Made by a program: the position numbers and the translations under genes. Shown here in pieces: positions 1,230 through 58,068 of a stretch of DNA of 59,538 bases. Under the pieces are notes generated by a model. It had not been told where the DNA came from, did no database searches, and saw nothing but the letters and a program-made list of their open reading frames with translations. How positions within the stretch are numbered: the stretch's first letter is position 1; every line of letters begins with the position of its first letter. Location of the stretch: positions 1 through 59,538 of the forward strand of contig JAFTJB010000054.1 of assembly GCA_017456625.1 (NCBI GenBank). Direction: 5' to 3'. This stretch comes from Clostridia bacterium (GTDB lineage: Bacteria > Bacillota > Clostridia > Oscillospirales > CAG-272).

Positions 1230-2819
1230 TTACAAATTGATTACAGCCATGATCAACCAAAGCGCGATGCAGACCGCCGTAACGGGAGATGCAAGTGCGC
1301 GAAGGAAGATCTTCGGGATCTGCTTGAGGGGAGGATTGGTGGTGTATGCGGAGGAGAGATTGGCGCGGGCATAGAGGTGATAGATCTTGCGCGCCTCGCC
1401 CGTCGCAAATGCCGAGAAAAGCAGGAAGAGCGTGACGACGCAGAACATAAAGATGTCGTTGCTTCCCGCGTGAACGTAGAATGCCGAGAGATAGGGCTGT
1501 CCGAAGAGACAGAAAAGATTGTAGAGAAAATGCAGGACAAAGACTGCAAAGAAGGAGCGTGTCGCGTAGAGGACCGAGGCGAGCAACGCGCCGAGGAGCA
1601 GATAGGTTAAAAAGAGCGGGAAGGAGAAATGGAGCATGGCGAAGAAAAGCGAGCTTGCCGCAATGGAGATCGCAACGCCGAGATGCTCGTATTCGGCACA
1701 CAGATAGGCGCGGAAGACCAGCTCCTCGCAGAACGCGGGGACGAGCGCGTAGGCAATGATGAGCGCAGAGATGCCGAGAAAGTCGCCGCTGCTTTGCGCG
1801 CTGAAGGTGTTGTATAGGACAACGCCACCTGAGAGGGAGGAGATACCGCCCGTTAAGATGCTTGCGAGCATGCTTCCCGTGATCATGACCACAAGGATGC
1901 ACAGACAAAACCAAAGCTGTGAGGGCTTTGGGAGCGTGAGGCGGATCCGTTTGGTGAATTTCTCTCCGCGCAAGGCAGAGTAGAGCACCGACGGAACGAC
2001 GAAAATGAGGATCTGCAAAAGCACCGCGCCGATCGCCTCGCTTCCGCGGTCAAGGAGCGCCGTGTCGATCAGCCTTGCCAGAATGAGAAGCAGGAAGGAG
2101 CAGAGGACGAGCGCGGGTGGGAGATGGAGCACGCGGACGTGAGAAAGCTCGGAAAGCTCCTCTTTACTCGGTTGGAGCGAGCGAAGCCAATTGAGTGCTT
2201 GATTTACGTAGGTCGCGAGCGGCGTCGCGGCTTTTTTTCTTTTTACGATGGCGTTGCAATCGATCACGCCGCGCTCGGTAAAGAGCAGAGAAACGGAGTG
2301 ATCATGCGCCTCGGTGGGGAGCCTTTTGCAGAGCATCGCATCAAGGACGGCTCCTACGGCAATGCCGGGGAAGGTGTCGAGAAAGCGGTCGTAATAGCCT
2401 TTTCCGTAGCCGATCCGTGCGCCGTTTGGCGTAAAGGAGAGCCCGGGGAGGATGCAGAGCGTGCGCTCTGTCGGCTTTGCGATGGGCGCGTCTGCGGGGG
2501 GCTCGGGAATGTTATAGGTGCCTGCGTTCAGCCGCTGATCCTCCTTTAGAATGCGGAAGGTGAGGGTACAGGTCTCGGGATCGCTGATGGGGAAGGCAAC
2601 GGGGATTCCCTTTGCGCGAGCGACACGGACGAGCGGGAGGAGATTGAGCTCCTTGCCGATGGGCGCGTAGAGAAGCAGGAGATCGGCGTTTGCAAGCTGC
2701 GAGGATGCGGCAATGCGGGAGACGATCTGTTGACTCCGCTCGCGGAGCTGCTCGTTGGAGATCTGTTCGCGGCGCGCGCGAAGCTTGGCGCGCACCTCTT
2801 TTTTTGCGTTTTCGTTCAT
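1230..2819 (-). CDS. Fusion protein: N-terminal 5-formyltetrahydrofolate cyclo-ligase plus C-terminal CPBP (CAAX/Abi-type) intramembrane protease
   Basis: Start moved from 2912 to the ATG at 2819 (MNENAKKEV), 1 nt after the DJ-1 stop. N-terminal part: PGLSFTPNGARIGYGKGYYDRFL. C-terminal polytopic part: EELVFRAY, FFAMLHFSF, VLHFLYN. The frame is continuous. Confidence 0.8.
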   Translation of the reverse strand: MNENAKKEVRAKLRARREQISNEQLRERSQQIVSRIAASSQLANADLLLLYAPIGKELNLLPLVRVARAKGIPVAFPISDPETCTLTFRILKEDQRLNAGTYNIPEPPADAPIAKPTERTLCILPGLSFTPNGARIGYGKGYYDRFLDTFPGIAVGAVLDAMLCKRLPTEAHDHSVSLLFTERGVIDCNAIVKRKKAATPLATYVNQALNWLRSLQPSKEELSELSHVRVLHLPPALVLCSFLLLILARLIDTALLDRGSEAIGAVLLQILIFVVPSVLYSALRGEKFTKRIRLTLPKPSQLWFCLCILVVMITGSMLASILTGGISSLSGGVVLYNTFSAQSSGDFLGISALIIAYALVPAFCEELVFRAYLCAEYEHLGVAISIAASSLFFAMLHFSFPLFLTYLLLGALLASVLYATRSFFAVFVLHFLYNLFCLFGQPYLSAFYVHAGSNDIFMFCVVTLFLLFSAFATGEARKIYHLYARANLSSAYTTNPPLKQIPKIFLRALASPVTAVCIALWLIMAVINL

Positions 2820-2820
2820 A

Positions 2821-3360
2821 TCAATCCGCCAATACCGCGCGGCGCAGCTCGTCCGCGGTGTCCTTGCCCTTGAGAGCGGAAACGAGCGCAAGCCCGAATT
2901 CGAGTGCAACACCCATGCCCGCGCCTGTAATGATCTTGCCGTCGGTCACCACACGTTCGTCGGCTAACGTAGCGCCCTCCAGATATTCTTCAAAGCCGGG
3001 GAAGCAGATCGCACGCTTGCCCGCAAGGTATCCGCGCTTACCGAGCACCATGGGAGCGGCACAGATCGCGGCAATGAACGCATTGTTCCTCGATGCGGCG
3101 CGGAGTGCGCTTTCCACGGTCGTGGAGGCATCGAGATGCTTTGTGCCCGGCATACCGCCCGGCAGAATGACCATATCGGGCTTGCTGTCGCGATACATCG
3201 TGTCGGGGATATCGGCTTGTACGGTGATGCCGTGCGCCCCCGTGATGCTCTCGCCGCCGATGCCGACCGTTGTGACCTGCACCTCCGCGCGGCGCAGAAG
3301 GTCGAGCGGACAGAGAGCCTCGATCTCCTCAAAGCCATTTGCTAAAAACATATATACCAT
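2821..3360 (-). CDS. DJ-1/PfpI (ThiJ) family protein
   Basis: 179 aa. Contains VILPGGMPG and the nucleophile-elbow-like AAICAAPMVLG typical of the DJ-1 family. Confidence 0.8.
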   Translation of the reverse strand: MVYMFLANGFEEIEALCPLDLLRRAEVQVTTVGIGGESITGAHGITVQADIPDTMYRDSKPDMVILPGGMPGTKHLDASTTVESALRAASRNNAFIAAICAAPMVLGKRGYLAGKRAICFPGFEEYLEGATLADERVVTDGKIITGAGMGVALEFGLALVSALKGKDTADELRRAVLAD

Positions 3361-3383: not shown

Positions 3384-3713
3384 TTATTGCAGCCCTGCGG
3401 TGAGACGAATGAGCAGGGAGCGGTTATCGGGTTGATTTTTTGCGTCGTACGCCGCACGGTTGCGGTGGATCTCGCCGCACTTGGTGCAACGGTGGTAGAT
3501 GATGAAGCCGTGCTTGGCATCGGGCTCGGTGCGGATCGGCTGCATCTGCCCCTTGCAGGGATTGGCGCGATCTCCGGGGTTGACGTCAACGTGAAGAGAC
3601 CAGAGGCAGAAGGGGCAATGATTGCGCGAGGTAAAGCCGAGAGGCAGGACCTCCTTGCCGCAGTGCTCGCAGACAAAGCCGCTATCATTTTTGGTAAACC
3701 GTTTTTGCTCCAT
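3384..3713 (-). CDS. RNHCP domain protein (small Cys-rich zinc-ribbon-like protein)
   Basis: Literal RNHCPFC motif plus CEHCG and CTKCG cysteine pairs. Start set at MEQKRF (ATG 3713). The upstream part of the 160-aa track ORF is AT-rich promoter-like DNA. Confidence 0.7.
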   Translation of the reverse strand: MEQKRFTKNDSGFVCEHCGKEVLPLGFTSRNHCPFCLWSLHVDVNPGDRANPCKGQMQPIRTEPDAKHGFIIYHRCTKCGEIHRNRAAYDAKNQPDNRSLLIRLTAGLQ

Positions 3714-3879
3714 AGGCCCTCCGTGTATATAATAAATGTACAGAATAATCTTATCACAAACATGGCGGGATGTCAAGCCCTTTCGTTTTTTGAGAATTGT
3801 GGAAAAAACAAGACGGTTATTTTTAGAGGTAGCAAATTTAACATAATTTTGGATGTTTTTTATCATTTCTTTGTATGTA

Positions 3880-3908
3880 TTGACAGGGGTGGGGTAACCT
3901 GTTAAAAT
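3880..3908 (+). promoter_or_regulatory. Sigma-70-type promoter for the micro-ORF and giant gene 1
   Basis: TTGACA (3880-3885), 17-nt spacer, TAAAAT (3903-3908). Confidence 0.65.
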
Positions 3909-3951: not shown

Positions 3952-4125
3952 GTGAATATGAAACACGAAGGAACGAGAAAAGCATATTTCGAACCACAGG
4001 CGGACGTTGTTTTGATGCTTCAGAACGACATCGTAACACTCTCGAGCGGCGAGGATCACGGCGGGAACATTCCCACCAAGCCGGACGAGGACTGGGATCT
4101 CGGCGAATACGTCATTACGCGATGA
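3952..4125 (+). CDS. Micro-ORF family member 1 (55-57 aa), unknown function
   Basis: GGAGG at 3940-3944. In-frame GTG at 3952 (7-nt spacing) or ATG at 3958. Peptide: MKHEGTRKAYFEPQADVVLMLQNDIVTLSSGEDHGGNIPTKPDEDWDLGEYVITR. It has paralogues at 9521 and 57799. Confidence 0.6.
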   Translation: MNMKHEGTRKAYFEPQADVVLMLQNDIVTLSSGEDHGGNIPTKPDEDWDLGEYVITR

Positions 4126-4176
4126 CGGTTAGATCTCGGTGACATGAAACACAGAATATTCAGAAAGGAAATCGAC

Positions 4177-7100
4177 ATGAAACATTCAAGAAGAGTTTTA
4201 TCAATGATTTTGGCGATCCTGATGGTCTTCTCCTCTATGGTCGCAGCGACCACGGTCAGCGTCAGCGCTGCGGAAGAGGCGGAGGATCACGGAACGCAGC
4301 CCACCACCTGGTGGCATGACGTGGTCATTTCCACGTACGGCGCAGACGCAAAGCCTGCGGACGTATTCTCCAATCCTACCAACAACGACGGTACGTCCGA
4401 TGCTAAGGCATGGCTGATCGATAATCCCACTCAGCTTGCATACATGGCATACTACCTTGAGAGCGGCGCGCTCAACGGTGCAACCGCTATAACCTACTTC
4501 TATATCAGAGGTAACGATTGCGGCGGCGTATTCGATATGTCCGCGCATCAGTGGAAGCCCGTTTACGCTCCGTATAAGTTCAAGCTTTCCGGTCGCGCGA
4601 CCTGTAAGATCACGGGCCTGAAGCTGACGGCGAGCGAGGCGATCTCCGGCTATCAGTACGAGAGAGGCTGCGCAATGTTCTCCGCTTTGAGCGACACCGC
4701 AGTCGTTGAGAACCTCAACCTTGAGGTCAAGATCCTCAATCCCGTGCTCACCTCTACCGCATCCTTGAATAACAGCGTAGGTGTTGCGGGTATCGTTGCG
4801 TATGCAACCGGCACCTCGCAGATCAGAAACAGCACCGTTACCCTGGATCTCGACGTCAACGGAACGGGCGGTGCATACATCTATGCGGGCGTGGTTGCTT
4901 ACACGGCATCCAATGCGGCTGTTACGGGCTGTACCGTAAAGGGTGATATGAAGATCACGGCTCCCGCTTCCAAGGAGGTTTGGGTCGGCGGCGTTCTGGG
5001 CTACCACACCGGTGCTGCACTGAACACGATGACGAACGAGGCGACCATTGCCGTTACCTCCGCTTCTCAGGTAAACGTTGGCGGCTTGATCGCAAAAACG
5101 GGAACCTTCGCGAGCGGCAGCACAAATACCAACAAGGGTGCGATCAACGTAACCCTGACCGGTGCCACCACCACCTATTCCATGATCGGCGGTGTGGTCG
5201 GCGCATCTCATGCGATCCCCTACTACTTTGCAACCCTGAAGAACGAGGGTGCCGTTACCGTTACGACGAGCGGCGCTGCCGTATACCTTGGCGGTATTAC
5301 GGGCGGATTCTCCAATACCGGTGCTAAGAACACGATGACCGGCGGTATGACCAATACCGGTGCGATCACGCTGAACGTCAACGCGAAGTCGTCTGCGAAC
5401 CAGTACGTTGGCGGTCTCTTCGGTATTTACAACGCAACCGTTGCGGGCTCTACGCTGAAGAACGCGCAGAACTCAGGTGCGGTTAGCGTGGTTGCTGTGG
5501 ACACCGTGGTTGAAACCGTTGAGACCGGTGTCGGCGGCTTGATCGGTCAGATGATCCATCTCGAGGTCACGGGCTGTAAGAATGACGGTCCCATTACCGT
5601 TACCAACTCCAGCGTCGGTAAGTTCCACGTCGGCGGTATCGCGGGCTTGATGCACCGCTCCTCGAGCGGCGGAAACGCGCTGATCAGCTGTGAAAATACG
5701 GCAAACGGTAAGATCACCCTGACCGATAAGAGCTCTTATGACGGCAACAGACAGACCCGTTACGTGGGCGGTATCGTTGCGTACTTCCTTTCCAACACGA
5801 TCAAGGATTGTGTAAACAACGGTGATATCACCTACAACTGCTCCGAGCTTGGTTCTGTCGGCGGTATTCTGGCAGCATTCGGTGACCCCAACCTGACGGT
5901 CAGCGGCTGTACGAACAACGGTAACATTACCGTTGCCAACTCCATCAGCTACGGCTCTGTCGGTAAGGTCGCAGGTATCGCTGCGGAGATGCAGAAGACG
6001 GGCGCCGTAATCGACAATTGTACCAACACCGGTACCGTTCGCCAGACGAAGGGTACGGGACAGAACTACGTCTACATGGGCGGTATCGTTGCTCAGCAGA
6101 AGGACGGAACCGTTAAGAACTGCGAGAACAAGGGTATCATCAAGACCGATAACCTTACCAAGGGCGGAAACGAGAGACACGCGCTCCACATCGGCGGTCT
6201 CATCGGTTACGCGGGCAATGCGGCAACGCTGACCGACCTTACCAACAGCGGTGCGCTCAGCATCACCTTCACGCAGGGTGCGAAGGAAGCCACCAACGTG
6301 GGCGGCATCGGAGCTACCAACACGGGTAACTACATCGCGGGTGTTGTAGGTCTCGCAGAGGGAACCACGACCCTGACGAATATCACAAACAAGGTGGATG
6401 TTATTGCGACCACGCAGGATGGACGCGAGGACAACTCCACTCTTAAGCTTGGCGGTGTTGCAAACCTCCGCGGAAGCACGACCGCGACCAACGTCTCCAA
6501 CCTGGGCTCCAAGGTTGATTTCACGAGTAACAAAGGCGCATCGCTCTTTATCGGCGGTGTATTCGGTGAGCTTGCCGATACTGCAAAGGCTACGACTGTA
6601 GTCAACTACGCAACCGTCAACGCAAGCAAGACCTCTTGGACCGGAACCGATGCAGGCGGTATCGTCGGACGCATCTACGCCGGCGCATTGCTTGACGGTG
6701 CTATCAACTATGCAAACGTATCCTCGACCACCACTTCGGACAGTGACTGCAGCGCAGGCGGTATCGTCGGTGTTGCAATGCCCGTAGCGGCGGCTGCTGC
6801 AAGAGGCGTTTACAATGCAACCAACTACGGTGAAGTTGCGATTGCAGGTCTCGGAAACAACGCGGCTGCAGGTATCTGCGCACGTGTATCCGCAGGTACT
6901 GTTGCAGGCGACATTCACTTCGAGAACTGCTTCACCGTCGGTGACGTTGAAAGCATTCCCATGTCCGGCGGCATCATCGGTCACACCCGTGCGGAGTCTG
7001 TATCCGGCGGCGTTGTTACCAATGCCTACACCGTTTACCTCACCAACTGCATCAGCTACGGCACCGGCGCGGCATACTCTCTCGTCGGCTCTCTCCGTAA

Positions 7101-9342
7101 CGATGCGCTCGTTCTTGAGAACTGCTTCGGTAACACCGAGTATTTCCTCAACTACTTCAACCAGAACAGTGCAAACAAGGATTCCGTCGGTCAGCAGTTC
7201 CTCGTAACTGTCAATGGTGTTAACGTCGAGGGTAACTCGATCGCGTACAACCCCGACGACGATACCTGTGCACACGTTGAGATCGCTACCCTGGATAAGG
7301 CTCGCGTCCGTCTGGATGCAGCGGGAACCGATGAGTCGGGTATCCGCTTCGATAGCTACATTACCAAGGAGAGCTACGATGAGATCAAGGCAATGACGAA
7401 TGTCGATATCGACTTTGATACGATCATTGCTCCCACGCAGAATCTTGCGATCACCTCCGTTGCAAACGCATACGATAAGCTCGAGGCTATGAACGCGCTC
7501 GGCGGTAAGCGTTACACGGTCATTCCCTTCGATCAGGAATTCCTGGATCCTGCGGAATACGGTGATACCTCCGGCGATAAGTACTACTTCGCAGGTGCGC
7601 TCAACCAGATCAAGACCACGAACTACAACCTTTCCTTCACCGCGATCGCGTGCATCACGATCACCATCGACGATATGCTCACCTTCAAGCTCTACGCAGA
7701 TTATGACGTAGCGAACACCGAGCGCGCACGTAGCATCGCACAGGTTGCAACCATGGCATTTGAGGACCGTGCAACCGAGCGTGTCACCATTGACGGTATC
7801 GACTACAAGTACCTCGCAAACGAGGATCACGAGTGCTATCTCGGCAATTACAGCTTGTACTCCAACGCACAGCTCGCAAAGCTGAAGACATACAGCAGCT
7901 ACGACAACACGGGTAAGGAAGCTCCCACGGGTCTCTCCGTCAACGGCGTTTCTATCTCCGAGTATAAGATCGTATACGCGCAGAGCCCCATCTACAGCAC
8001 CTACGGCTCTACCTCCGGCAAGACCCTCTACGGAGATCTCCACAACGTCACGCTGGCGCTTGACGACGGCACGGGCAGCATCGAGTTTGGTGACGTGCTC
8101 TTCGGCGCAACCTACGATTACGACTTCCAGACCGCGATCGCGATCCGCGATGCGATCAAGGACACCTTCGGCGTTGAGCTTGAGGTCGTTCCGGATTATG
8201 ACATCGGCGGCGATGCAAGCGTTCCCACCGACGACGTGATCACCCCTGAGGGACAGTACGAGATCCTCGTTGGTCAGACCAACAGAGCAAAGACGCAGTC
8301 CGCTGCGATCTTCGCACAGGATCCCGATGAGTTCACGCTCATGATCAACGATGATGATATCGTTGTATGCGGTGGCTCCTACGGTGCAACCTGGCATGCA
8401 GCTATGGCTCTCAAGGCTATTCTCGGTGAGCATGCAGGCGAGAACTACAACCTCAAGATGGCAGGCAATATGTCCGCAAAGGCAGACATGACCATCATCG
8501 CGTGCATCGGTGACTCCATCACCCGCGGCTCGCAGGCACTTCCCGATAACGATTTCGGCGGCAACAGCGGCGCGAATGATCTCTTCGGCGGAACTACCAC
8601 GGCAATCTATCTTGAGCAGTTCCTCTCCTATCCCGCAAATCTCCAGAGAATGCTTTGGAAGGATGCATACGTTTACAACTTCGGTCGCGGCAACTCTACC
8701 GCGGGCAACTACAACAACCCCGGTAACTACTACGCAAGCACCGATCACTGGAACAACTGCTACAACACCTCCAACTCCGACGTTGATTTCGATCTCGTAT
8801 TCATGATGCACGGAACCAACGACTCCACCCGTCCCGGCATGTACAGCCAGGCAACCGGTGCCTACAACTGGATCGAGGAGGATAAGGCAGCGTTCCGCGC
8901 AGAGGTACAGAACCTCATGGATAAGATCCTCGAGGGCTCGCCCAACGCAACCTTTATCTTCAACAACATTCCGCACAGATTTGATACCGATTCCAACACG
9001 GAAGAGCACAACACCATGGCAATGGCAGCAATCCAGAAGGAAATGGTAACCATCTTTGCAGAGACCTATGACGTATATCATTACGACATGAACAGCTTTA
9101 CTCGCGAAAATCTTGTCAATACCTCCTGCGAGTGCTACGATGCTCCTGCCGAGAACATCGATTCGACCGCAGAGGAGGCAGCTCACGGCTATTACTACAA
9201 CTGTGAGACCCCGAACGGCAAGCATGACGGTACGCACCCGAACTTCCGCGGCTACAACAAGATCGCAGAGGCTGTTTACTCCGTCGTTGACTATATTCTC
9301 AACGGTGCGGAGAAGCCGGTTTACATGATCGACGTTCAGTAA
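4177..9342 (+). CDS. Giant secreted protein: signal peptide, long GLUG-like beta-helix repeat region, alpha/beta module, C-terminal SGNH/GDSL esterase
   Basis: Start at ATG 4177 (MKHSRRVLSMILAILMVFSSMVAATTVSVSA). I counted at least 22 GG[IVL]xG-type repeat cores by eye. SGNH blocks: IGDSITRGS, FGRGNS, HGTNDS, DGTHPNFRGY. Confidence 0.85.
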   Translation: MKHSRRVLSMILAILMVFSSMVAATTVSVSAAEEAEDHGTQPTTWWHDVVISTYGADAKPADVFSNPTNNDGTSDAKAWLIDNPTQLAYMAYYLESGALNGATAITYFYIRGNDCGGVFDMSAHQWKPVYAPYKFKLSGRATCKITGLKLTASEAISGYQYERGCAMFSALSDTAVVENLNLEVKILNPVLTSTASLNNSVGVAGIVAYATGTSQIRNSTVTLDLDVNGTGGAYIYAGVVAYTASNAAVTGCTVKGDMKITAPASKEVWVGGVLGYHTGAALNTMTNEATIAVTSASQVNVGGLIAKTGTFASGSTNTNKGAINVTLTGATTTYSMIGGVVGASHAIPYYFATLKNEGAVTVTTSGAAVYLGGITGGFSNTGAKNTMTGGMTNTGAITLNVNAKSSANQYVGGLFGIYNATVAGSTLKNAQNSGAVSVVAVDTVVETVETGVGGLIGQMIHLEVTGCKNDGPITVTNSSVGKFHVGGIAGLMHRSSSGGNALISCENTANGKITLTDKSSYDGNRQTRYVGGIVAYFLSNTIKDCVNNGDITYNCSELGSVGGILAAFGDPNLTVSGCTNNGNITVANSISYGSVGKVAGIAAEMQKTGAVIDNCTNTGTVRQTKGTGQNYVYMGGIVAQQKDGTVKNCENKGIIKTDNLTKGGNERHALHIGGLIGYAGNAATLTDLTNSGALSITFTQGAKEATNVGGIGATNTGNYIAGVVGLAEGTTTLTNITNKVDVIATTQDGREDNSTLKLGGVANLRGSTTATNVSNLGSKVDFTSNKGASLFIGGVFGELADTAKATTVVNYATVNASKTSWTGTDAGGIVGRIYAGALLDGAINYANVSSTTTSDSDCSAGGIVGVAMPVAAAAARGVYNATNYGEVAIAGLGNNAAAGICARVSAGTVAGDIHFENCFTVGDVESIPMSGGIIGHTRAESVSGGVVTNAYTVYLTNCISYGTGAAYSLVGSLRNDALVLENCFGNTEYFLNYFNQNSANKDSVGQQFLVTVNGVNVEGNSIAYNPDDDTCAHVEIATLDKARVRLDAAGTDESGIRFDSYITKESYDEIKAMTNVDIDFDTIIAPTQNLAITSVANAYDKLEAMNALGGKRYTVIPFDQEFLDPAEYGDTSGDKYYFAGALNQIKTTNYNLSFTAIACITITIDDMLTFKLYADYDVANTERARSIAQVATMAFEDRATERVTIDGIDYKYLANEDHECYLGNYSLYSNAQLAKLKTYSSYDNTGKEAPTGLSVNGVSISEYKIVYAQSPIYSTYGSTSGKTLYGDLHNVTLALDDGTGSIEFGDVLFGATYDYDFQTAIAIRDAIKDTFGVELEVVPDYDIGGDASVPTDDVITPEGQYEILVGQTNRAKTQSAAIFAQDPDEFTLMINDDDIVVCGGSYGATWHAAMALKAILGEHAGENYNLKMAGNMSAKADMTIIACIGDSITRGSQALPDNDFGGNSGANDLFGGTTTAIYLEQFLSYPANLQRMLWKDAYVYNFGRGNSTAGNYNNPGNYYASTDHWNNCYNTSNSDVDFDLVFMMHGTNDSTRPGMYSQATGAYNWIEEDKAAFRAEVQNLMDKILEGSPNATFIFNNIPHRFDTDSNTEEHNTMAMAAIQKEMVTIFAETYDVYHYDMNSFTRENLVNTSCECYDAPAENIDSTAEEAAHGYYYNCETPNGKHDGTHPNFRGYNKIAEAVYSVVDYILNGAEKPVYMIDVQ

Positions 9343-9354: not shown

Positions 9355-9386
9355 GAGAGGCTCCTTCGGGAGTCTCTCTTTTTTTG
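9355..9386 (+). terminator. Rho-independent terminator after giant gene 1
   Basis: gagaggctcc-ttcg-ggagtctctc stem with one G-U pair, followed by a T7 run. Confidence 0.8.
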
Positions 9387-9432: not shown

Positions 9433-9461
9433 TTGCCTCAAATGGCTGAAAATGGTATAAT
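9433..9461 (+). promoter_or_regulatory. Extended -10 promoter for micro-ORF 2 and giant gene 2
   Basis: TTGCCT (9433-9438), 17-nt spacer, TGgTATAAT (9453-9461). Confidence 0.6.
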
Positions 9462-9520: not shown

Positions 9521-9676
9521 ATGAAAAGGTATTCAAAACCGCAGGCAGAACTGGTCTTTTTGACAGCGCAGGATATTCTGACAGCGTCCGTCGGCGAGGA
9601 GCACGGCATGGAGGTGCCTGCTGTAACCGACAAGGATTGGCAGATCGGTGAAATCGGCGAGATTCCCGGCGCGTGA
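9521..9676 (+). CDS. Micro-ORF family member 2 (51 aa), unknown function
   Basis: Too short for the supplied ORF track. aaaGGAGGa lies 6-7 nt upstream of ATG 9521. Peptide: MKRYSKPQAELVFLTAQDILTASVGEEHGMEVPAVTDKDWQIGEIGEIPGA, stop 9674-9676. Confidence 0.6.
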   Translation: MKRYSKPQAELVFLTAQDILTASVGEEHGMEVPAVTDKDWQIGEIGEIPGA

Positions 9677-9719: not shown

Positions 9720-12700
9720 ATGAAAAACGCAAGAAGAATTATTTCTATGCTTCTGGCAGTTTTGATGGTCCTCTCCTCGATGGTCGTTGCGACCACGGTC
9801 AGCGTCAGCGCTGAGGAGGATCACGGAACCCAGCCCACGACTTGGTGGGACGAGAAGACAACGGCAACTGCATTTGCAGGCGGTGACGGTAAGTCCGAGG
9901 CTACGGCATATCAGATCGCCACGGCAGATCAGCTTGCATATTTTGCAAAGTACCTTGAGGGCGGCGCTCTGAACGCAAAGGCAGAGAAGACCTACTTCAA
10001 GCTGACGGCAGACGTCGATATGTCCGCGCATCAGTGGAGACCGATCGGTCACTCCGCAACGTTGCTCGGAACCGCCGAGTACGTTAAAGACAATGCGGCT
10101 CTCGGTACGAACACGCTCTATAACGCAGTGTTTGACGGTGGAAACTTCACCGTCAGCGGCTTGAAGCTGACCGCAGGTGCAGACTATCAGTACGCAAACG
10201 GATGCGCACTCTTTACTTCTATTCAGAAGTCTACGATTCAGAACCTCAAGCTTGAGGTCAAGATCCTTGACCCCCAACTGAAGGAATACGGAATGCCTTC
10301 GCTGAAGAGCAACGGTTCTGCTATGAGCAATTGTAAAAATGCCGTAGCTACCGTAGCGGCACTTGCTGTAAATTCTACGGTCAAGAACGTAACCGCAACC
10401 GTGGATATTGACGTTCGAGACATCGGTGGTGTTTGCGTGGTCTCCGGTTTGGTTGGATCGGTCTTTGGTACAGATCTTTCCGGCTGTACCGTAAAGGGTG
10501 ATATCAACAGCTCGAGCGCAGATCGGGTCTTCGTTGCAGGTGTGCTTGCATACTATCAGGGCGGAGCGCTTACCAACCTTGTCAACGAGGCGAAGATTAC
10601 CGTTGTTAGCACCAAGGCGGGGGCTGAACTGCACTATGGTGGTGTCGTTGCATCCACTACGCAGGGACCTTGGGGCTCCGGCCTGGTCAACAAGGGTGAT
10701 ATGAACATTACTTTAAACGCATCGAACGGTAGCCCCGCAAACATCGGCGGCGTTTTTGGTTGCCCTGCAGTACTGCGCTCCGCAATGGGTGCGTGCCGCA
10801 ACGAGGGTGATATTACCGTAACGACCACAAACTCATCCATCGCAGTCGGCGGTGTCGTCGGACGTACCTCTCACAAGGAGTGCAATTTCACCGGCTACAC
10901 CAATACCGGTGACATTACGGTTACCAAGAGCGGTGGCTCCAGTAACACGATCGTTGGCGGTATCATCGGATATTTCTCCGGCTCGGCGGCAGGCGCAAAG
11001 CTTGTTAACGCCGAGAACACGGGTAAGGTTACTCTTACGTACACCAACGGCGCGGCCAACGCACCTTGGGTTGGCGGCTTGACGGGTGTGCAGAATTGCT
11101 TGACGGTTTCCGACAGCGTAAACCGCGGTGACGTGACCGTAACGGGACTTGGCGCCGGGGCACAGATCGGCGGTCTCACGGGTCATATCCAGTCGGGTGC
11201 AGACGGCTCTGTATCCAATTCCACCAACTACGGTACCGTGACCGTAAAATCCACAGATACGGCTGCCGGCAACTGCCTGGTTGGCGGTCTTGTCGGTAAG
11301 GTAGAACCCAAGACGACCTTTACCAAGGTGGTTAACGAGGGTGACATCATTTGTGAGGGTGCTGAAGCAACTTGGCTCATCGCCGGTATCGCTGCGACCA
11401 TGGCAGCGGGCACCATCAATGACGCAACCAACAACGGTATGATCAAGTGCAAGGCGCAGGTAACGGGAGTTTGCTCGGTTACCGGTATCGTCGGAAATGT
11501 CGCGTCTGCTGTGATCAACACGGCAGTCAACAACGGCGAGATCATTTGCGAGGGCAATGCAAGTCCTTGGAGGATCGCCGGTATTGCGGGAAATCTTAGC
11601 GCGGTACAGATAGATAACGTTAAGAACTATGGAAATATTACGCTGAGCAAAGCCAGCGGTGGCGAACGCAGAATTGGCGGTATTAACGCTGACGTATCCT
11701 CCGGTACGACATGGATCAGAAAGGCAGAGAATCACGGTGACATCACCGCAGAGGCTGTTAATAACGCAGGTACCTTCTGGGTAGGCGGTATCTCCGGCCA
11801 CTGGATTGGAAACTCTACTTATAATGAGGTTTCCAACTATGGAGATATTTATGCATCCAAAGGAAGCACCCACTACCTTGGCGGTATTGCGGGCGGCGTG
11901 AACGTAAGCGCTGATGCAACCACTGCGGCAGAGATGGAAAATCTCTACAATGAGGGCTCGGTCAATGGCGTCGGTGCTACCAGTAACCAAGCGTACGGCG
12001 GTATCATCGGACGTATCTCCAACGACAACCAAAGAACCAATCTTCCCGTACACGACATCGTAAACGCGTTTAACATCGGTGCGGTTAAGTCCGGCTATCT
12101 CTCCGGCGGTATCATCGGTTACGCAGGCTCCTCGAGAAACGGAAACCCTGAAACCGCACGCCGTTATACGGTCAACCTCCGCGAGTGCATTGCGCTTAAC
12201 ACCAACGGCACCTACGGTCTTGTAGGCTCCGCACGTTGCGCATATATGGACATTGAAGACTGCTTCACCGATGCAGAAGATTTCATGACCTACTGCAACC
12301 AGGATACGCTCTATGTGGGCGGTACGGGTATCACCGTCAACGGTGTGCTTTACCCCGAGCACTATAACCTGGGTGATTTCAAGCTCAACCCCGAGGGTGT
12401 TGCTTATATCGATATCGAAACGCTTGACAAGGCAAAGGTCCGTCTCGACTCGATGGCAACCGACGAGTCCGGTATCCGCTTTGACAGCGCGATCTCCAAG
12501 AAGACCTATGCGGATCTGAGAGCAATGGACGTCGACTTCGAGTTCGGTACGCTCATCGCTCCTACCGACAACCTCAACCTTGCAAAGGTCGTAGCATCCT
12601 ACGATAAGATGGATGCACTCGACGCTCTTACCGGCGCGGGCAGGACCATGTACGTGCTCGTTCCTTACGAGCAGGAATTCCTCTCCGAGGATGTGGATAA

Positions 12701-14456
12701 CTACTACTTCGCAGGCGCGCTCAACAAGATCAAGGACGCAAACATCAATCTGTCCTTCTCTGCGATCGCATACCTGACCGTTGAGTACGGCAACAGAAGC
12801 TTTACCTTCTACGCAGATTACGACGATACCAACAAGGACCGTGCGCGCAGTGTCGCACAGGTTGCGAAATCTGCGTTTGAGGACCGCGCAACCGAAGAGA
12901 CGACCATTGACGGTATTGACTATAAGTTCCCCGCAATGGCAAGTAACGAGTGCTACCTCGGCGGCTGGAGCTTGTACTCCAACACGCAGCTCGCACGTCT
13001 CAAGGCATGGAGCAACTATGACAACGAGGGTAAGGTCGTTCCCAACGGACTCACCGTCAACGGCGTTTCCATTTCCGAGTATAAGATCGTATACGCACAG
13101 AGCCCCATCTACAAGACCTACGGCTCCAATTCCGGCAAGACCCTCTTTGGTGATCTTAGCAACGTAAGGATGCAGATCTATACCGACGCTACTACCCCGA
13201 CGGGTCAGTATGTTGAGTATGGCGATACGCTTCTCGGTGCAAGATACGATTACGACAAGCAGACCGCAGAGAGACTTCGCGATTTGATCTACGCAGAGTA
13301 CGGTGTGATGCTTGAGGTCGTTCCGGATTACGACATCGGCGCAGATCCTGCATTCACCTCCGATGACGTGATCACTCCCGAGAGCGATTACGAGATCCTT
13401 GTCGGCTTTACCAACCGCGCAAAGTCGCAATCCGCAGCACTTGCACGCATGCTCGACGATGATTACACCTTCAAGATCGATGATACCAAGATCGTCGTTT
13501 GCGGCGGTGCATTCGGTACAACCTGGCACGCAGTCGACGCGCTTGAGGAGCTCTTCGCAACGCTGGAAAACGGCGTGGATTACAACCTCAAGATGGCAGG
13601 TAACCTCTCCGGCACTTACACGATGCAGAAGATCGCGACCATCGGTGACTCTATCACCCGCGGTTCGCAGGCACTTCCCGACGGTAACGATTACGGCGGT
13701 CCCGGCGGTGCGTCTACTCTCTTCGGCGGCAACGCAACCGAGACCTACTACAGATACTACCTCTCCTATCCCGCAAATCTCCAGAGATTGATGTGGAAGG
13801 AAGGCGTGGTCTACAACTTCGGTCGCGGCGCTTCCACGGCAATCAATCTGGGTAACTCCAACTACTACGGCGGTAGTGCAGAGTGGAACAAGTGCAAGGT
13901 TACGATGGAGACTGTTGCGTTTGATCTCGTATTCCTGCAGCACGGCACCAACGATGCCGGCTCTGTTGCGGCAAACGCTCAAAGAGAGACCGAGTATCGC
14001 AACGAGATCAAGGCGATCGCGGATGAGTTCCTTGCAAACTCCAACCCGAACTGCAAGTTTGTGATCAACAGCGTTCCTCACGCATTTGACGGAGTCGGCT
14101 TCAACAGAAACGAGGCGAATGACGAGAATATGCGTCGCGTCCAGAAGGAGACCGCAACGGCTCTCAAGGCAGAGGGATATGATTTCTATCACTTCAACAT
14201 GGGCGAGTACACCAAGGATAACCTTGTAAACGAGGGCGCAGAGCCTTGTCCCGGTCACACCACTGCAGGCGACTACGCTGAGCAGGAGAAGGCATGCCAC
14301 GGCGACTACTACAACATCCACACGCCTTACACCAAGAACGAGGGTACGCACCCGAACTTCCGCGGCTACAACAAGATGGCTGACGGTGTGTATACGGTTG
14401 TACAGTACATTCTCGCAGGCGGTGCAAAGCCCATCTACATGATTGATATTGGCTAA
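9720..14456 (+). CDS. Giant secreted protein, paralogue of 4177..9342 with the same architecture
   Basis: Signal peptide MKNARRIISMLLAVLMVLSSMVVATTVSVSA. At least 17 GG[IVL]xG repeat cores. SGNH blocks: IGDSITRGS, FGRGAS, HGTNDAG, EGTHPNFRGY. Confidence 0.85.
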   Translation: MKNARRIISMLLAVLMVLSSMVVATTVSVSAEEDHGTQPTTWWDEKTTATAFAGGDGKSEATAYQIATADQLAYFAKYLEGGALNAKAEKTYFKLTADVDMSAHQWRPIGHSATLLGTAEYVKDNAALGTNTLYNAVFDGGNFTVSGLKLTAGADYQYANGCALFTSIQKSTIQNLKLEVKILDPQLKEYGMPSLKSNGSAMSNCKNAVATVAALAVNSTVKNVTATVDIDVRDIGGVCVVSGLVGSVFGTDLSGCTVKGDINSSSADRVFVAGVLAYYQGGALTNLVNEAKITVVSTKAGAELHYGGVVASTTQGPWGSGLVNKGDMNITLNASNGSPANIGGVFGCPAVLRSAMGACRNEGDITVTTTNSSIAVGGVVGRTSHKECNFTGYTNTGDITVTKSGGSSNTIVGGIIGYFSGSAAGAKLVNAENTGKVTLTYTNGAANAPWVGGLTGVQNCLTVSDSVNRGDVTVTGLGAGAQIGGLTGHIQSGADGSVSNSTNYGTVTVKSTDTAAGNCLVGGLVGKVEPKTTFTKVVNEGDIICEGAEATWLIAGIAATMAAGTINDATNNGMIKCKAQVTGVCSVTGIVGNVASAVINTAVNNGEIICEGNASPWRIAGIAGNLSAVQIDNVKNYGNITLSKASGGERRIGGINADVSSGTTWIRKAENHGDITAEAVNNAGTFWVGGISGHWIGNSTYNEVSNYGDIYASKGSTHYLGGIAGGVNVSADATTAAEMENLYNEGSVNGVGATSNQAYGGIIGRISNDNQRTNLPVHDIVNAFNIGAVKSGYLSGGIIGYAGSSRNGNPETARRYTVNLRECIALNTNGTYGLVGSARCAYMDIEDCFTDAEDFMTYCNQDTLYVGGTGITVNGVLYPEHYNLGDFKLNPEGVAYIDIETLDKAKVRLDSMATDESGIRFDSAISKKTYADLRAMDVDFEFGTLIAPTDNLNLAKVVASYDKMDALDALTGAGRTMYVLVPYEQEFLSEDVDNYYFAGALNKIKDANINLSFSAIAYLTVEYGNRSFTFYADYDDTNKDRARSVAQVAKSAFEDRATEETTIDGIDYKFPAMASNECYLGGWSLYSNTQLARLKAWSNYDNEGKVVPNGLTVNGVSISEYKIVYAQSPIYKTYGSNSGKTLFGDLSNVRMQIYTDATTPTGQYVEYGDTLLGARYDYDKQTAERLRDLIYAEYGVMLEVVPDYDIGADPAFTSDDVITPESDYEILVGFTNRAKSQSAALARMLDDDYTFKIDDTKIVVCGGAFGTTWHAVDALEELFATLENGVDYNLKMAGNLSGTYTMQKIATIGDSITRGSQALPDGNDYGGPGGASTLFGGNATETYYRYYLSYPANLQRLMWKEGVVYNFGRGASTAINLGNSNYYGGSAEWNKCKVTMETVAFDLVFLQHGTNDAGSVAANAQRETEYRNEIKAIADEFLANSNPNCKFVINSVPHAFDGVGFNRNEANDENMRRVQKETATALKAEGYDFYHFNMGEYTKDNLVNEGAEPCPGHTTAGDYAEQEKACHGDYYNIHTPYTKNEGTHPNFRGYNKMADGVYTVVQYILAGGAKPIYMIDIG

Positions 14457-14479: not shown

Positions 14480-14510
14480 CGAGAGGTCCTTCGGGACCTC
14501 TCGTTTTTTT
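14480..14510 (+). terminator. Rho-independent terminator after giant gene 2
   Basis: cgagaggtcc-ttcg-ggacctctcg perfect stem followed by a T7 run. Confidence 0.85.
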
Positions 14511-54409: not shown

Positions 54410-54442
54410 ATAAAGAGGAGCCCTCTCGGTTGAGAGGACTCC
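54410..54442 (-). terminator. Terminator after the secreted metallophosphoesterase gene
   Basis: Minus strand: ggagtcctctc-aacc-gagagggctcc (one mismatch) followed by T-rich sequence. Confidence 0.6.
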
Positions 54443-54459: not shown

Positions 54460-57400
54460 TTATTTCGTGATCGCGATGGAAACTTCCTGGAGAACAGGGT
54501 TGGACATATTCAAGCCGCCGTTGCCGTCGTTGGGCTTGAGCATGAAGACGATCAGAACGTCCTTATCCGTATTGTTGGTGTAGGACTTCTTCCAGTTTGC
54601 TTTTCCTGCGGTCGTGTAGTCGGTGTAGAAATCACCCGTGTTGCTTCCTGCGACAGGAGTCAGCGTGGTGTAAGCCACCATCAATGCGCTGGAACTGCCA
54701 TTGGTCATTGTGACGTTGGCAGGGCAGGTAACGGTGATGGTCTCGCCTGCCTTGACTGTGAAGACATTCGAGGTCAGACGGGTAGGCTTGGTTACCGTGT
54801 GGCTCTCTCCCGCCCAATCGGACATGGAGCCGTTATAGGAGCCGTTGATCCAATCGTTTGCAACGTTCTTGTAACCTTCGTTAGCGGTGTACATTGCACG
54901 GTAGGTGTTTGCCTCGGAGACAAATACCTTTGCGGTTGCGGTGGTCGCAACGGTCGTGCCGGTCTTATCGACCCAGTGAGAGAAGGTGTGACCGGAGATC
55001 TCGATCGCCGTGAGCGTGATCTCGGTATCAAGCTCTACGGTTGCGTAGCTCTTGCCGTCGGTGGTACCGTTGTGGACTCTGACGGTAGTGGTGTCAAAGT
55101 TCTTGGAGTCAATATCGAGAGAAGTGGAGGTGCCAATGTTATCACCGTAGCCGTATATCAGATCACCACCTGCACCGAAGCGGGTGAGATAGATCATCTG
55201 GGACTTGGTATCGACTTGAATGAAGCTAAAGCTCTGCTCCATGATGCTACCGGGAGCCATCTTATAGCTGGTTGCGGAGTTGGAGTTGCCGAATGCGTCA
55301 CAGTTGAGAGAGACGATGCGAATCTTGTTGCCTGCGCTATCCTTTGCGATAACGTTGCGGTCCTCGTGTACGTGACCGTTGATCCAGATCGCGATCTCAG
55401 CATCAGCCTCGCCCTGAAGCGCGAGGATCTTCTTAACAACCTCGTAGTCCTTATCGGTGTACTCGTTTGCATTGCCCTCGGAGGAGCAGAAGATACCGTG
55501 CGTGATAAGAACAACGGTCCAATCCGCATCAAGCTCCTTGATGCGCTCGGATGCCCATGCAAGACTGGAGTCGACGTATCCGTCCTCGATCATGCCGTGC
55601 TGGCTACCTGCAAAGTAGAACTGTACGTAACGAACCTTGTTAGCGGTGTCGTCGTAGTAGCTCTTGCTAGGGTCACCGGGAACGGTCGTACCGAATTTCT
55701 CGACACGCTTCATGTAGAGATCGTATGCCTCCTGCTCGGTGAGACGGAGCGCAACGTCGGGGCAGTTGGAGGAGCCGTTACGGTCGTGGTTGCCGAGCGT
55801 GGTGAAGATCTTGAGCTGCTCACCGACCTCGGCGTAGTTTTCGAATGCGTTGTAGAATGCATTGATCTCATGATCGATCGCGTTCTGCTTGACTGCGTTA
55901 TAGCGTCTGATGATGTCACCGCCGAAGATTACGTTGTGCGTGCCAACCTTCTCGGCGATGTAGGTAACGAGTGCGGGAGAATAGCCTGCGTTGTCGGGCC
56001 AGTGGCTATCTGCGAGATAGAAGAACTCGGAGAGCCCCTCGGTGCCGAGCGTCTCACGGTTTGCCTCGATCTTTGCAATACCGTCGGTCAGCTCTGCCTG
56101 CCAGTAGGTGCCCGCGGCAATATCGGTCTCGTCGTCAATAAGGGTGATGACGAAGCCGAGGATCGTATCTGCGTGATTTGCAACGGTAATGGGATTGGTG
56201 GCAGCGTGGTTGGCGGACTTGACGGTTATCATCATCAAGGTGTCCTCGATTGCCGTATAGGAGAAGGAGTGGTTCTTCCAATCGAGTGCCTGGACGGTGT
56301 ATCCGGAAATGATGTCGGTCTCCTCGGGGGTCTTTGCGGTCAGGATCATGGGACAAGCCGAGAAAGCGCATCCGCCGGAGCAGGGATTGGTGCTATCATT
56401 GGTATCCTTGGCAAAGGGACAATCCTCGGGATCGGAGAATTCCGGAGGCATTACGATCTGGAAGGTCGAGCCTGCGGGAATGAGGATCGGAGTCTTGAAG
56501 GATACGCGTCCGGTATCCGTGGTGGGGTTCCAGGAGGTGAGCTTGCCGTGGATACCGCCCTGCTCCCACATTGTAATGTCGTTGTAAACGCGCGTTCCGA
56601 CAACGTCGCCGAAGCCGAGCTCGTAATATGCCTTGTAGGTGGTCTCACCGGTAACGGTGACGGTGGAGGTGCGCTCGGTACCGACAACGGTGCCGCTTGC
56701 ATCCTTCCAGTGCTTGAATACAAAGCCATTGGGACCCTTTGCCGCCTTGAGCGTGAGTTGGGAGCCGACGAGCGCGTCAATGGAGGTCTCACCGTCGGCA
56801 GTCGCACCGTTCTTCACGCTGACGGATACGAGAGAGCCGTATACGGGGGTGAGGGTGATGTTCTCATTGCCTGTGACGGTGTAGGTGAGGGCTGCGGTGG
56901 AGCCGACCTTTGCGCCGTTTGCCATCCACGCGGAGAAGGGCTTGCCATCGGGATCCTGTGCGGGAGCGGACAGGGCGATGGTGTCATCCTTGAGGTAGAA
57001 GCCCGCGTTCGTTCCGTCGGGAAGCGTGGTGCCGTTGACGGTTACGTAGAGGAAGTCTGCGGTCGCGGGGCGATCAGCCTTGTAATCAAAATATTTCTGA
57101 GCGGCGGTACCGTATTCGAGCATCTCGCCAAGGAGAAGCTGAAGATCGGTATCGGTGGTTGCGTCATTGCCGATGTAGCCGAGCTTGGTGTAAGCGTATT
57201 CCAAAACGCTGAACTTTACGAGGTCACTGTAATGGGCCTCGCCACCCTTCTCTGCGTAAACGCGGACGTAGAGATCGTCCGTCATCTGCTTTGCGGTGAG
57301 ATCGGTGTAATAAAAGCGGAGCGTGTCGGCATCTACCGTGTAAGGGGTGAGTGCGACACTCTCGGTGCCTGCGATATAAGCAGTCTGTGGCGCAGTCCAA

Positions 57401-57600
57401 ACGAGAAGTTTGACGTTTGCTGCTTCAACGTTTTCATAATAAACGTCAAAAACGGGCTGTACGTTGTCCTTGAGCGAGAGATTCTTGCTCTCAATGCCAA
57501 GAACGGGGGCAGCGTTGCTGTTGGTAGCAAATACTGCCGCAGGGATGCTGACCATCAGAACGGTGGCGAGCAACAGCGAAATCAATAAGCGCTTTCTCAT
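54460..57600 (-). CDS. Large secreted protein: calcineurin-like metallophosphoesterase core flanked by B-repeat-like (InlB/Listeria-Bacteroides type) modules
   Basis: Signal peptide MRKRLLISLLLATVLMVSIPAAVFA. Phosphoesterase motifs: LADSHW, FGGDI, LGNHDR, LITHG, NGHVHED. Repeats: GFVFKHWKDASGTVVG...YKAYY, GHTFSHWVDKTGTTVA...YRAMY, GKPFSAWMANGAKVG. Confidence 0.8.
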   Translation of the reverse strand: MRKRLLISLLLATVLMVSIPAAVFATNSNAAPVLGIESKNLSLKDNVQPVFDVYYENVEAANVKLLVWTAPQTAYIAGTESVALTPYTVDADTLRFYYTDLTAKQMTDDLYVRVYAEKGGEAHYSDLVKFSVLEYAYTKLGYIGNDATTDTDLQLLLGEMLEYGTAAQKYFDYKADRPATADFLYVTVNGTTLPDGTNAGFYLKDDTIALSAPAQDPDGKPFSAWMANGAKVGSTAALTYTVTGNENITLTPVYGSLVSVSVKNGATADGETSIDALVGSQLTLKAAKGPNGFVFKHWKDASGTVVGTERTSTVTVTGETTYKAYYELGFGDVVGTRVYNDITMWEQGGIHGKLTSWNPTTDTGRVSFKTPILIPAGSTFQIVMPPEFSDPEDCPFAKDTNDSTNPCSGGCAFSACPMILTAKTPEETDIISGYTVQALDWKNHSFSYTAIEDTLMMITVKSANHAATNPITVANHADTILGFVITLIDDETDIAAGTYWQAELTDGIAKIEANRETLGTEGLSEFFYLADSHWPDNAGYSPALVTYIAEKVGTHNVIFGGDIIRRYNAVKQNAIDHEINAFYNAFENYAEVGEQLKIFTTLGNHDRNGSSNCPDVALRLTEQEAYDLYMKRVEKFGTTVPGDPSKSYYDDTANKVRYVQFYFAGSQHGMIEDGYVDSSLAWASERIKELDADWTVVLITHGIFCSSEGNANEYTDKDYEVVKKILALQGEADAEIAIWINGHVHEDRNVIAKDSAGNKIRIVSLNCDAFGNSNSATSYKMAPGSIMEQSFSFIQVDTKSQMIYLTRFGAGGDLIYGYGDNIGTSTSLDIDSKNFDTTTVRVHNGTTDGKSYATVELDTEITLTAIEISGHTFSHWVDKTGTTVATTATAKVFVSEANTYRAMYTANEGYKNVANDWINGSYNGSMSDWAGESHTVTKPTRLTSNVFTVKAGETITVTCPANVTMTNGSSSALMVAYTTLTPVAGSNTGDFYTDYTTAGKANWKKSYTNNTDKDVLIVFMLKPNDGNGGLNMSNPVLQEVSIAITK

Positions 57601-57628: not shown

Positions 57629-57799
57629 TTACAGCATGGGCTCGAGAAGGTCGGGATCGTCCGGTGCGACGGGAATGCTCGGAACGGGAGGGACCGTTGT
57701 TATGGGGGGATTGTCGGGTTGGAGCGATGAAGCGGTCAGGACGTCCGCGGAGGACAACTTGATAACTTCAACCGTTGTGGGGGTATAGTGCTTTTTCAT
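57629..57799 (-). CDS. Micro-ORF family member 3 (56 aa), unknown function
   Basis: Not in the ORF track. AAGGAAGGA SD. Peptide: MKKHYTPTTVEVIKLSSADVLTASSLQPDNPPITTVPPVPSIPVAPDDPDLLEPML. Its stop is 28 nt upstream of ATG 57600. Confidence 0.5.
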   Translation of the reverse strand: MKKHYTPTTVEVIKLSSADVLTASSLQPDNPPITTVPPVPSIPVAPDDPDLLEPML

Positions 57800-57839: not shown

Positions 57840-57869
57840 ATTATATCATAAATCGAAAATGCTTGTAAA
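57840..57869 (-). promoter_or_regulatory. Extended -10 promoter for micro-ORF 3 and the metallophosphoesterase gene
   Basis: Minus strand: TTTACA, 18-nt spacer, TGaTATAAT. Confidence 0.55.
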
Positions 57870-58064: not shown

Positions 58065-58068
58065 CTGT

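Follow-up and report, generated by a model that had tools for sequence, protein, structure and literature searches.

The stretch of DNA considered here, called the window throughout, is the whole of contig JAFTJB010000054.1 (59,538 nucleotides, nt) from a Clostridia bacterium of the CAG-272 group (assembly GCA_017456625.1). It carries three small genes, m1, m2 and m3, each of which directly precedes the gene of a giant secreted protein (G1, G2 and G3, respectively; Table 1). We find that the three encoded peptides belong to a family that occurs mostly in gut and rumen Clostridia, whose members adjoin large secreted proteins and at some loci share an operon with candidate genes of peptide maturation and export.

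Three peptide-giant units in the window

The three reading frames had been proposed in an earlier note made from the letters of the window alone, and their coordinates, translations and gaps to the downstream ATGs are all confirmed. A hidden Markov model (HMM) of the leader built from other genomes and run over all six frames picked exactly m1 (E = 1.8e-9), m2 (3.8e-12) and m3 (2.9e-11), that is, a range of 2e-9 to 4e-12, with the next match at 0.14; the motif that had been read from the three peptides is far above chance. Each of them stands in a self-contained unit made up of a sigma-70-like promoter, a strong Shine-Dalgarno sequence (AAGGAGGA or GGAAGGA), the peptide gene, a spacer of 28-51 nt, a giant with signal peptide and more than 1000 amino acids (aa) and an intrinsic terminator. 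The gap between peptide and giant measures 51 nt for m1 (ATG 4177), 43 nt for m2 (ATG 9720) and 28 nt for m3 (ATG 57600). The promoter-like sites match the consensus at 10-11 of 12 positions, and the claim that every unit has its own promoter and every peptide its own Shine-Dalgarno sequence is supported. The giants begin with signal-peptide N-termini, as had been predicted. A Sec or lipoprotein signal peptide on m1-m3 themselves was considered and rejected: the leader has a conserved Glu (Y+6) and a conserved Asp (Y+14), its longest uncharged stretch is about 7 residues and an uncharged h-region of about 10-15 residues is absent, which bears out the earlier statement that the peptides lack one.

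G1 and G2 are paralogous, with an identity of about 40% by BLASTP; G3 has no similarity to G2 by BLASTP and is unrelated to both. As m1 with G1 and m2 with G2 amount to a single unit that has been duplicated, peptide and giant are independently associated twice in the window and not three times. The order of a peptide followed by a GDSL giant is kept in three other lineages (loci L001, L102 and L133; loci of other genomes are labelled in this way throughout), so that homologues in relatives do exist in the same arrangement. The giants of these units are 39-44% identical, with 39% between G1 and the L133 giant, which also has a family peptide in front. Layouts like that of the window but with other giants occur at L025, L049/L125, L053, L114 and L115. 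The m3 gene was found in identical form, followed by the same large gene cut by the contig end, on contigs of three other samples, and its type of tail recurs in P0027, P0029 and P0046.

A third GDSL-lipase gene lies 3' of G2 behind a promoter-like site of its own, but no peptide gene precedes it, so that the peptide is tied to the giant architecture of G1 and G2 and not to the lipase domain itself. The mature N-termini of the GDSL giants of this clade (G1 at 4270-4310, G2 at 9800-9850, and those of L001, L102 and L133) share the pattern [ED][ED]HG.QP.TWW, and the peptides in front of them carry G[ED][ED]HG...P...D.DW; the two patterns occur together in all five units, which are related by descent. 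The m1/m2 tails (GE[DE]HG..P..DW) also look like the start of the mature G1/G2 chains (EDHGTQPTTWW), a likeness that was dropped as a candidate, being not significant against shuffles (p = 0.07-0.8). Elsewhere in the window, the sole Rfam match is a tRNA gene, and two genes encode intramembrane proteases of the Rce1/CPBP type, one of them in fusion with another enzyme domain. In Firmicutes, proteases of this type are at times associated with the maturation of peptides or with immunity.

Table 1. Positions of the peptide genes, their giant partners, signals of the three units and other features of the window
Feature	Position	Strand	Description	Source
m1	3952 (GTG) or 3958 (ATG) to 4125	+	55 aa, 57 aa from GTG; leader from ATG 3958 to ~4044, up to the invariant Ser, then acidic tail SGEDHGGNIPTKPDEDWDLGEYVITR	translation
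m2	9521..9676	+	51 aa; leader 9521-9589, then tail VGEEHGMEVPAVTDKDWQIGEIGEIPGA	translation
m3	57629..57799	-	56 aa; leader 57728-57799, then Pro-rich tail ending PDDPDLLEPML	translation
G1	4177..9342	+	1721 aa, signal peptide, repeat-rich, C-terminal GDSL lipase domain	Pfam
G2	9720..14456	+	1578 aa, signal peptide, C-terminal GDSL lipase domain	Pfam, BLASTP
G3	54460..57600	-	1046 aa, signal peptide, Metallophos and Flg_new_2 domains	Pfam
Type-i module in G3	57085..57297	-	residues 102-172: ...FSVLEYAYTKLGY...DLQLLLGEMLEYGTAAQKYFD	
Promoter-like site, unit 1	3880..3908	+	TTGACA-17-TAAAAT, extended -10 TG; 11/12 matches	promoter scan
Promoter-like site, unit 2	9433..9461	+	10/12 matches	promoter scan
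Promoter-like site, unit 3	57840..57869	-	TTTACA-18-TATAAT, with TG; 11/12 matches	promoter scan
Terminator of G1	9355-9378		5' of the unit 2 promoter	
Intrinsic terminator, end of unit 2	14480..14503	+		
Intrinsic terminator, end of unit 3	54417..54442	-		
Terminator preceding the unit 3 promoter	58034-58066			
Hairpin over the m1 stop	~4090-4141	+	inner stem CGUCAU/AUGACG at 4110-4127	
Third GDSL-lipase gene	14672-16447	+	591 aa, no peptide gene in front	
Promoter of the third GDSL-lipase gene	14585-14613		12/12 sigma-70 match, extended -10	
Rce1/CPBP-type protease gene	1230-2912	-	fused to a 5-formyltetrahydrofolate cyclo-ligase domain	
Rce1/CPBP-type protease gene	23470-24426	+		
tRNA gene	28086-28159	-		Rfam

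A family with a conserved leader and variable tails

The earlier note could not assign the peptides to any family, and Pfam and NCBIfam indeed hold no model that matches m1-m3. An exhaustive HMMER search over 1.84 billion representative proteins yielded 62 clusters (E <= 1e-3) that, with few exceptions, have a length of 35-67 aa and a match that begins at residue 1; across the family as a whole the peptides have 32-67 residues. The conserved N-terminus of 24 residues follows the consensus MKKxYxxPxxE[VIL][VI]x[LF]xxxD[IV][LIV]TxS, in which Y, D and S are each found in 61/61 sequences and T in 56/61. An alignment of 63 members shows this leader followed by a variable tail, the generic mark of precursors of peptides that ribosomes synthesise and that are modified post-translationally (RiPPs). 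The tails comprise 6-38 residues, are acidic and rich in Gly, Asp, Glu, Asn, Thr and Pro, and about 40% of them have a Trp near the end; Cys occurs in only 5 of 115. In the literature searched, the motif is absent, and neither a cassette of the kind described below together with its precursor nor a pairing of such peptides with giants has been described.

To collect genomic contexts, the DNA of a species-representative genome set was scanned with a back-translated leader pattern that contains neither start nor stop codon. The scan gave at least 120 loci, and all counts from it refer to the matches listed, of which 116 in 99 assemblies were readable. All but one of these (115/116) lie in frames of at most 110 codons, nearly always with an ATG at the expected start or a few codons upstream of it. 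Between m2 and its orthologues at L001 and L102, the ratio of nonsynonymous to synonymous substitution rates (dN/dS) was 0.09-0.16 in leader and tail alike, with synonymous sites near saturation. From these comparisons of sequence we regard it as certain that the family is protein-coding. An RNA element as the conserved entity is refuted by the same ratios, by the lack of a structure common to the m1 and m2 leaders (z = -3.6 for m1 and -0.9 for m2 against shuffles) and by Rfam, which has no match at the reading frames. The proposal of selection on the peptide, made from synonymous codon use in the window, has thus withstood closer inspection.

The hosts are mostly Clostridia of gut and rumen (Oscillospiraceae, Ruminococcus, Acutalibacteraceae, Scatosoma, Christensenellaceae, Lachnospiraceae), along with a few Synergistaceae and other groups, and some of them are cultured isolates. 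Several genomes hold 4-5 copies among the matches listed, with at least five in SVRZ01 and at least four in JAZRDI01. In SVRZ01, several giant-peptide pairs (L014, L044, L075, L117, L120) have nearly identical tails. Two further loci (L134 at 7809-8147 and L135 at 3431-3769) carry two tandem small genes of 54 and 48 aa behind a giant with LRR_5 repeats. Their common leader is limited to the first 16 residues (MKKIY.EPE.EIV.L) and lacks D-h-h-T-x-S (h, hydrophobic; x, any residue). These peptides form a divergent branch that has kept the half of the leader resembling a binding site for a RiPP recognition element (RRE) and is devoid of the putative cleavage motif. In a metagenome-assembled genome of a member of the Synergistaceae (L029, ~850-1340), at least two degenerate leader copies (..IEVIRFASEDVITDS.., ..IEVIHFSSEDIITRS..) lie beside two intact tandem genes, and together they make up a short tandem array that precedes the cassette.

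Large secreted partners and their terminal modules

In the analysis of neighbouring genes, reading frames were called by a crude greedy procedure, signal peptides were recognised by a heuristic and the other genes of the same loci served as background. According to the earlier note, the family would be defined by a position upstream of giant secreted enzymes. This definition proved too narrow: 76 of the 116 members follow a large secreted protein, beginning at most 60 nt past the stop codon of a gene in the same orientation, with a mode of 13-18 nt, and a signal-peptide protein lies within 150 nt downstream of about 20% (21/104). Complete upstream partners were signal-peptide-like in 28 of 36 cases versus 58 of 327 in the background (p = 4e-13), and a length of 800 aa or more was found for 15 of 36 versus 17 of 327 (p = 8e-9). 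What marks the family is a large Sec-secreted protein encoded next to the peptide in the same orientation, and m1-m3 share this trait.

These positions also bear on the suggestion that the small genes are regulatory leader peptides, whose translation would govern transcription or translation of the giant downstream. In the window, every peptide does lie within the 5' leader of its giant, and the m1 leader folds better than its shuffles. However, two thirds of the family stand behind genes rather than in front of them, purifying selection extends over the whole peptide including the tail, the m2 leader has no unusual structure, Rfam is negative, and the linkage to a maturation cassette described below would stay unexplained. 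The downstream placement of most members in particular argues against this role, which we consider very unlikely. A hairpin that spans the m1 stop codon (Table 1) has been counted in favour of it and might modulate the coupling of m1 and G1.

The bodies of the partner proteins are varied and include BspA-type LRR, DUF285, subtilase, Ig/PKD, Laminin_G and Metallophos domains. About half of the upstream partners nevertheless end in the same module of ~65 residues (...tYSvlSY....L..L.KALY.Y..AA..Y; called type i here), for which there is no Pfam model. In every upstream partner that has it, the module ends 0-17 residues before the stop codon. After iteration of its HMM, it was found in 38 of 80 partners versus 5 of 545 other genes (p = 6e-33). 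As for those five, one is followed by a peptide that the pattern had then missed, one by a lipoprotein and then a peptide, two run off the edge of the locus and one has the module internally. Nine further partners carry a different C-terminal domain (type ii) that is equally partner-specific. All these loci were picked via the peptide, and in the direction from module to peptide the figures are not an unbiased census, save for the cassettes reached from the kinase side (see below) and a few second pairs met by chance.

In the window, the partner-specific type-i module is present in G3, where it is full-length (E = 1e-7) and the sole match in six frames to an HMM made before G3 was added. It lies just behind the signal peptide and a beta-rich segment. 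The module of G3 thus adjoins the peptide gene, as in other genomes, in a mirror image of the usual order. A single-sequence AlphaFold2 model of G3 residues 1-205 places beta strands before helices in the module, at a low confidence (predicted local distance difference test score, pLDDT, 52). A type-ii domain in G1 had been suspected from a BLAST match to L047; HMM iteration gave no confirmation.

Such a close pairing could also be that of an unmodified accessory partner, i.e. a stoichiometric subunit, chaperone, pilot or anchor adaptor that would dock as a beta strand on the module, with the cassette serving a subset of members or another purpose. The spacing of 13-20 nt to the stop codon of the giant would favour co-translation at about one-to-one, the module sits at the terminus that faces the peptide gene in both gene orders, near-identical peptides stand beside different giants in one genome, and most members, all three of the window included, have no cassette nearby. 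The export or folding partner suggested in the earlier note stays alive in this form because the pairing with a partner-specific terminal module is near-obligate. However, the peptides have no signal peptide and the giants are Sec substrates, so that the two would end up in separate compartments unless an exporter acts. In addition, giant, peptide, ABC exporter and peptidase are found in the same complete operons, which means that the two contexts are not separate, and G1 and G2 do not contain the module. Overall, we consider an unmodified partner rather unlikely.

A candidate maturation cassette and the role of the peptides

At L029, the two tandem peptide genes are followed by genes for an HprK-related kinase-like protein, a PqqD protein, an S26 signal-peptidase-like protein and a nucleotidyltransferase of the NTP_transf_5 type, and L100 carries the full cassette including an ABC exporter. 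At least one of PqqD, HprK/ScmC-like, S26-like and NTP_transf_5 proteins was detected by tblastn beside members at 13 of 120 loci. In a reciprocal test, the kinase-like protein, which belongs to a family of at least 8000 clusters with a precomputed Pfam assignment to PF27840 'ScmC', was used as query and the contexts of five long-contig matches (L128-L132) were read. An identical order of giant, peptide and cassette is found at L128, at L129 and the syntenic L131, at L130 and at L132, which make four independent loci in all. The giants have a signal peptide, 656-1002 aa and a C-terminal type-i module (E = 1e-14 to 1e-26), and the peptides begin 14-32 nt behind them, have 32-41 aa and match the family at E = 1e-11 to 1e-14. 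Next come an acidic, Ser/Thr-rich lipoprotein or membrane-anchored protein (called X here), PqqD, NTP_transf_5, the ScmC-like kinase-like protein, an S26-like protein of ~142 aa and the ABC exporter.

The nearest NCBIfam models of the cassette proteins are those of the lasso PqqD chaperone, ScmC, signal peptidase I, SipW and nickel superoxide dismutase (NiSOD) protease, and bacteriocin-type ABC exporters; for the S26-like protein these are sigpep_I_arch, SipW and sod_Ni_protease. The catalytic box G.SM.PL is retained in the S26-like proteins, which have no N-terminal membrane anchor, and the kinase-like protein keeps its P-loop. In one case (L040, 433-2184), an S26-like peptidase is fused to NTP_transf_5 in a protein of 583 aa directly behind a family peptide, with capsule-type genes (Wzz/BY-kinase) after it.

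In two loci, the tail of the peptide resembles the C-terminus of X: at L132 (6269-6986) it is nearly a copy, GENELPGIDPFA versus DENELPGVDPFA (shuffle p <= 0.0005), and at L129 (4947-5512) DDLLERD stands against DDFLERD (p = 0.0025). The X proteins of several other loci end in ELPFVP. Mimicry of neighbouring proteins by the tail is seen in some loci only (L008, L129, L132). As a general rule it was rejected, since in permutations across loci z averaged about 0 when the tails were compared with upstream C-termini and with downstream N-termini, and 0.2-0.5 for X.

Parts of the cassette recall the lasso peptides of Firmicutes. Published leaders of this group read MK.[WY]..P.hE.L.I..T..|G, and HprK-like kinases and nucleotidyltransferases tailor the precursor C-termini of paeninodin and pseudomycoidin (PMC7533575). 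The rumen clusters of Butyrivibrio, Lachnospira and Ruminococcus (PMC7533575) are alike in their short precursor with an MK.[WY]..P.hE leader, the stand-alone PqqD-type RRE, the HPr-kinase-like enzyme, the NTP_transf_5-type nucleotidyltransferase, the ABC exporter, host taxa and habitat. On this account m1-m3 could be taken for paeninodin-type lasso precursors. However, the present cassette has an S26-like serine peptidase in place of the cyclase and the B2 transglutaminase protease, and neither an asparagine-synthetase-like cyclase nor a B2 protease occurs within 7 kb of the kinase-like gene at L128-L132 or in the window. The present leader is ~5 residues longer, ends in D-h-h-T-x-S instead of T-x|G and is followed by no ring-forming acidic position: an acidic residue at core positions 7-9 is found in 60-65% of the tails versus 54% expected from composition, and m1 has none in either register. 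The Thr two residues before the invariant Ser would equal the -2 Thr of lasso leaders only if the core started at the Ser. Only 1 of 12 published lasso precursors scored E < 0.01 against the leader HMM, and this in the first half of the leader only. Moreover, lasso clusters lack the genes with which the present operon opens, those of a large secreted protein and of an acidic lipoprotein. The missing cyclase and B2 protease, the lack of acidic enrichment at core 7-9 and the poor leader scores refute membership of the lasso class, which we regard as extremely improbable.

Other known systems share single features with the cassette. In SynChlorMet and related ScmC/HprK systems (TIGR04249, TIGR04352, TIGR04355; PF27840), a ScmC-labelled kinase-like protein also goes with a PqqD-family protein, but the present ScmC-like protein scores 33 bits against TIGR04249, whose cut-off is 125 bits, and a radical-SAM/SPASM partner, the criterion for SynChlorMet, appears in none of the Pfam lists of L128-L132. 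The S26 maturation peptidases SodX (the NiSOD protease) and SipW are likewise small S26-like enzymes with a G.SM.P box whose genes adjoin the presumed substrate, and the invariant T-x-S of the present leader fits their -3/-1 rule. Unlike them, the present enzyme stays below the cut-offs and has no N-terminal anchor, and its putative substrate, the cleavage of which we predict from sequence, has no hydrophobic core. A further parallel lies in gene organisation. The prochlorosins, class II lanthipeptides of Prochlorococcus, are made by one maturation system from many scattered precursors with a common leader. The present family resembles them in its conserved leader, its divergent cores and its several copies per genome, most of them far from a maturase; it differs in being almost free of Cys, in tails that may be near-identical within a genome and in the tie of each copy to a gene for a large secreted protein. 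Finally, a survey of Hungate1000 rumen isolates (2026) reports antiSMASH 'RRE-containing' clusters, to which no product class is assigned, as the second most abundant type according to its text, although its counts for them disagree (22 and 153; PMC13289728). These clusters come from the same taxa, and the survey describes no precursor family, S26-like peptidase or pairing with giants (PMC13289728). AntiSMASH would probably mark the present cassettes as 'RRE-containing'.

Regulators and mobility genes stand beside several of the operons: LytTR regulators with a histidine kinase at L130 and L132, and a GerE-type regulator at L129. At L128 (1-14729), genes for serine recombinases, a relaxase and MobC flank the whole operon of giant, peptide and cassette, which hence sits on a putative integrative mobilisable element, and integrase genes as well as the LytTR regulators adjoin the operon at L130 and L132. 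These neighbours, together with the ABC exporter in the operon, would suit a secreted pheromone or a bacteriocin-like RiPP for which the adjacency to giants reflects mere co-regulation or a mobile cassette and no functional tie. This explanation leaves open why the partners have specific terminal domains (p = 6e-33), why the module is always found right beside the peptide gene and why the tails at L132 and L129 copy the C-terminus of X. We therefore consider it improbable.

We favour the reading that m1-m3 are RiPP-type precursors that are tailored, freed of their leader and exported, and that act with the co-expressed giant, and we put its probability at roughly 55%. First, a PqqD-type RRE would bind the leader via its first half, [K]-x-Y-x-x-P-x-h-E-h-h, a strand motif of the type through which such RREs bind the lasso leaders of Firmicutes. 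The tail would then be tailored by phosphorylation and/or by nucleotidyl or glycosyl transfer, and the S26-like peptidase would remove the leader after the invariant Ser. We propose this cleavage site because D-h-h-T-x-S fits the -3/-1 small-residue rule of S26 enzymes. The ABC exporter would move the product, i.e. the variable acidic tail, out of the cell, where it may work with its giant, for example by binding the module, and not as a free-standing antibiotic. The near-obligate pairing with giant and module and the near-identical peptides beside different giants suggest such joint action.

Several observations weigh against this view. PqqD, ScmC, S26-like and NTP_transf_5 proteins and a dedicated ABC exporter are all missing from the 59.5-kb window, so that processing in trans has to be assumed for this organism. 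The role of a secreted or RiPP-like peptide that the earlier note had listed is thus supported by members elsewhere, in operons with PqqD, kinase-like protein, nucleotidyltransferase, S26-like peptidase and ABC exporter, and not by the window itself. All cassette proteins score below the curated cut-offs of NCBIfam, so that their activities are inferred from distant similarity. The HMMs detect neither a type-i nor a type-ii module in G1 and G2. In addition, the near-identical tails within SVRZ01 are more like those of a stoichiometric accessory factor than of a diversified natural product.

What appears new is a logic of RRE-dependent RiPPs that has an unusual peptidase, has no class-defining cyclase and is linked genetically to giant secreted proteins. 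As a more far-reaching and doubtful possibility, the peptide and the terminal module of its giant might constitute a hitherto unrecognised two-component extracellular system of gut Clostridia, in which a RiPP-style peptide serves as dedicated ligand of a surface protein. The peptide would bind the module, or would compete with the similar C-terminus of lipoprotein X, which is anchored in the membrane, and would in this way control whether very large adhesins and enzymes are anchored, released or active.

Gut and rumen Clostridia have many very large and poorly understood surface proteins and enzymes, and the 116 members listed from 99 assemblies indicate that many of these come with a tiny companion gene that has escaped annotation. 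For annotators, the leader HMM and a simple motif now make a missing gene family accessible. For the natural-product field, the candidate machinery points to a lasso-related, cyclase-free RiPP class with an unusual leader peptidase of the S26 type. Microbiome biology may gain a testable handle on the control or display of giant adhesins and hydrolases, and cultured hosts such as Ruminococcus sp. FC2018 and Porcipelethomonas ammoniilytica exist. If the more far-reaching possibility is true, RiPP machinery would in these bacteria make a ligand of surface proteins instead of an antibiotic or a pheromone.

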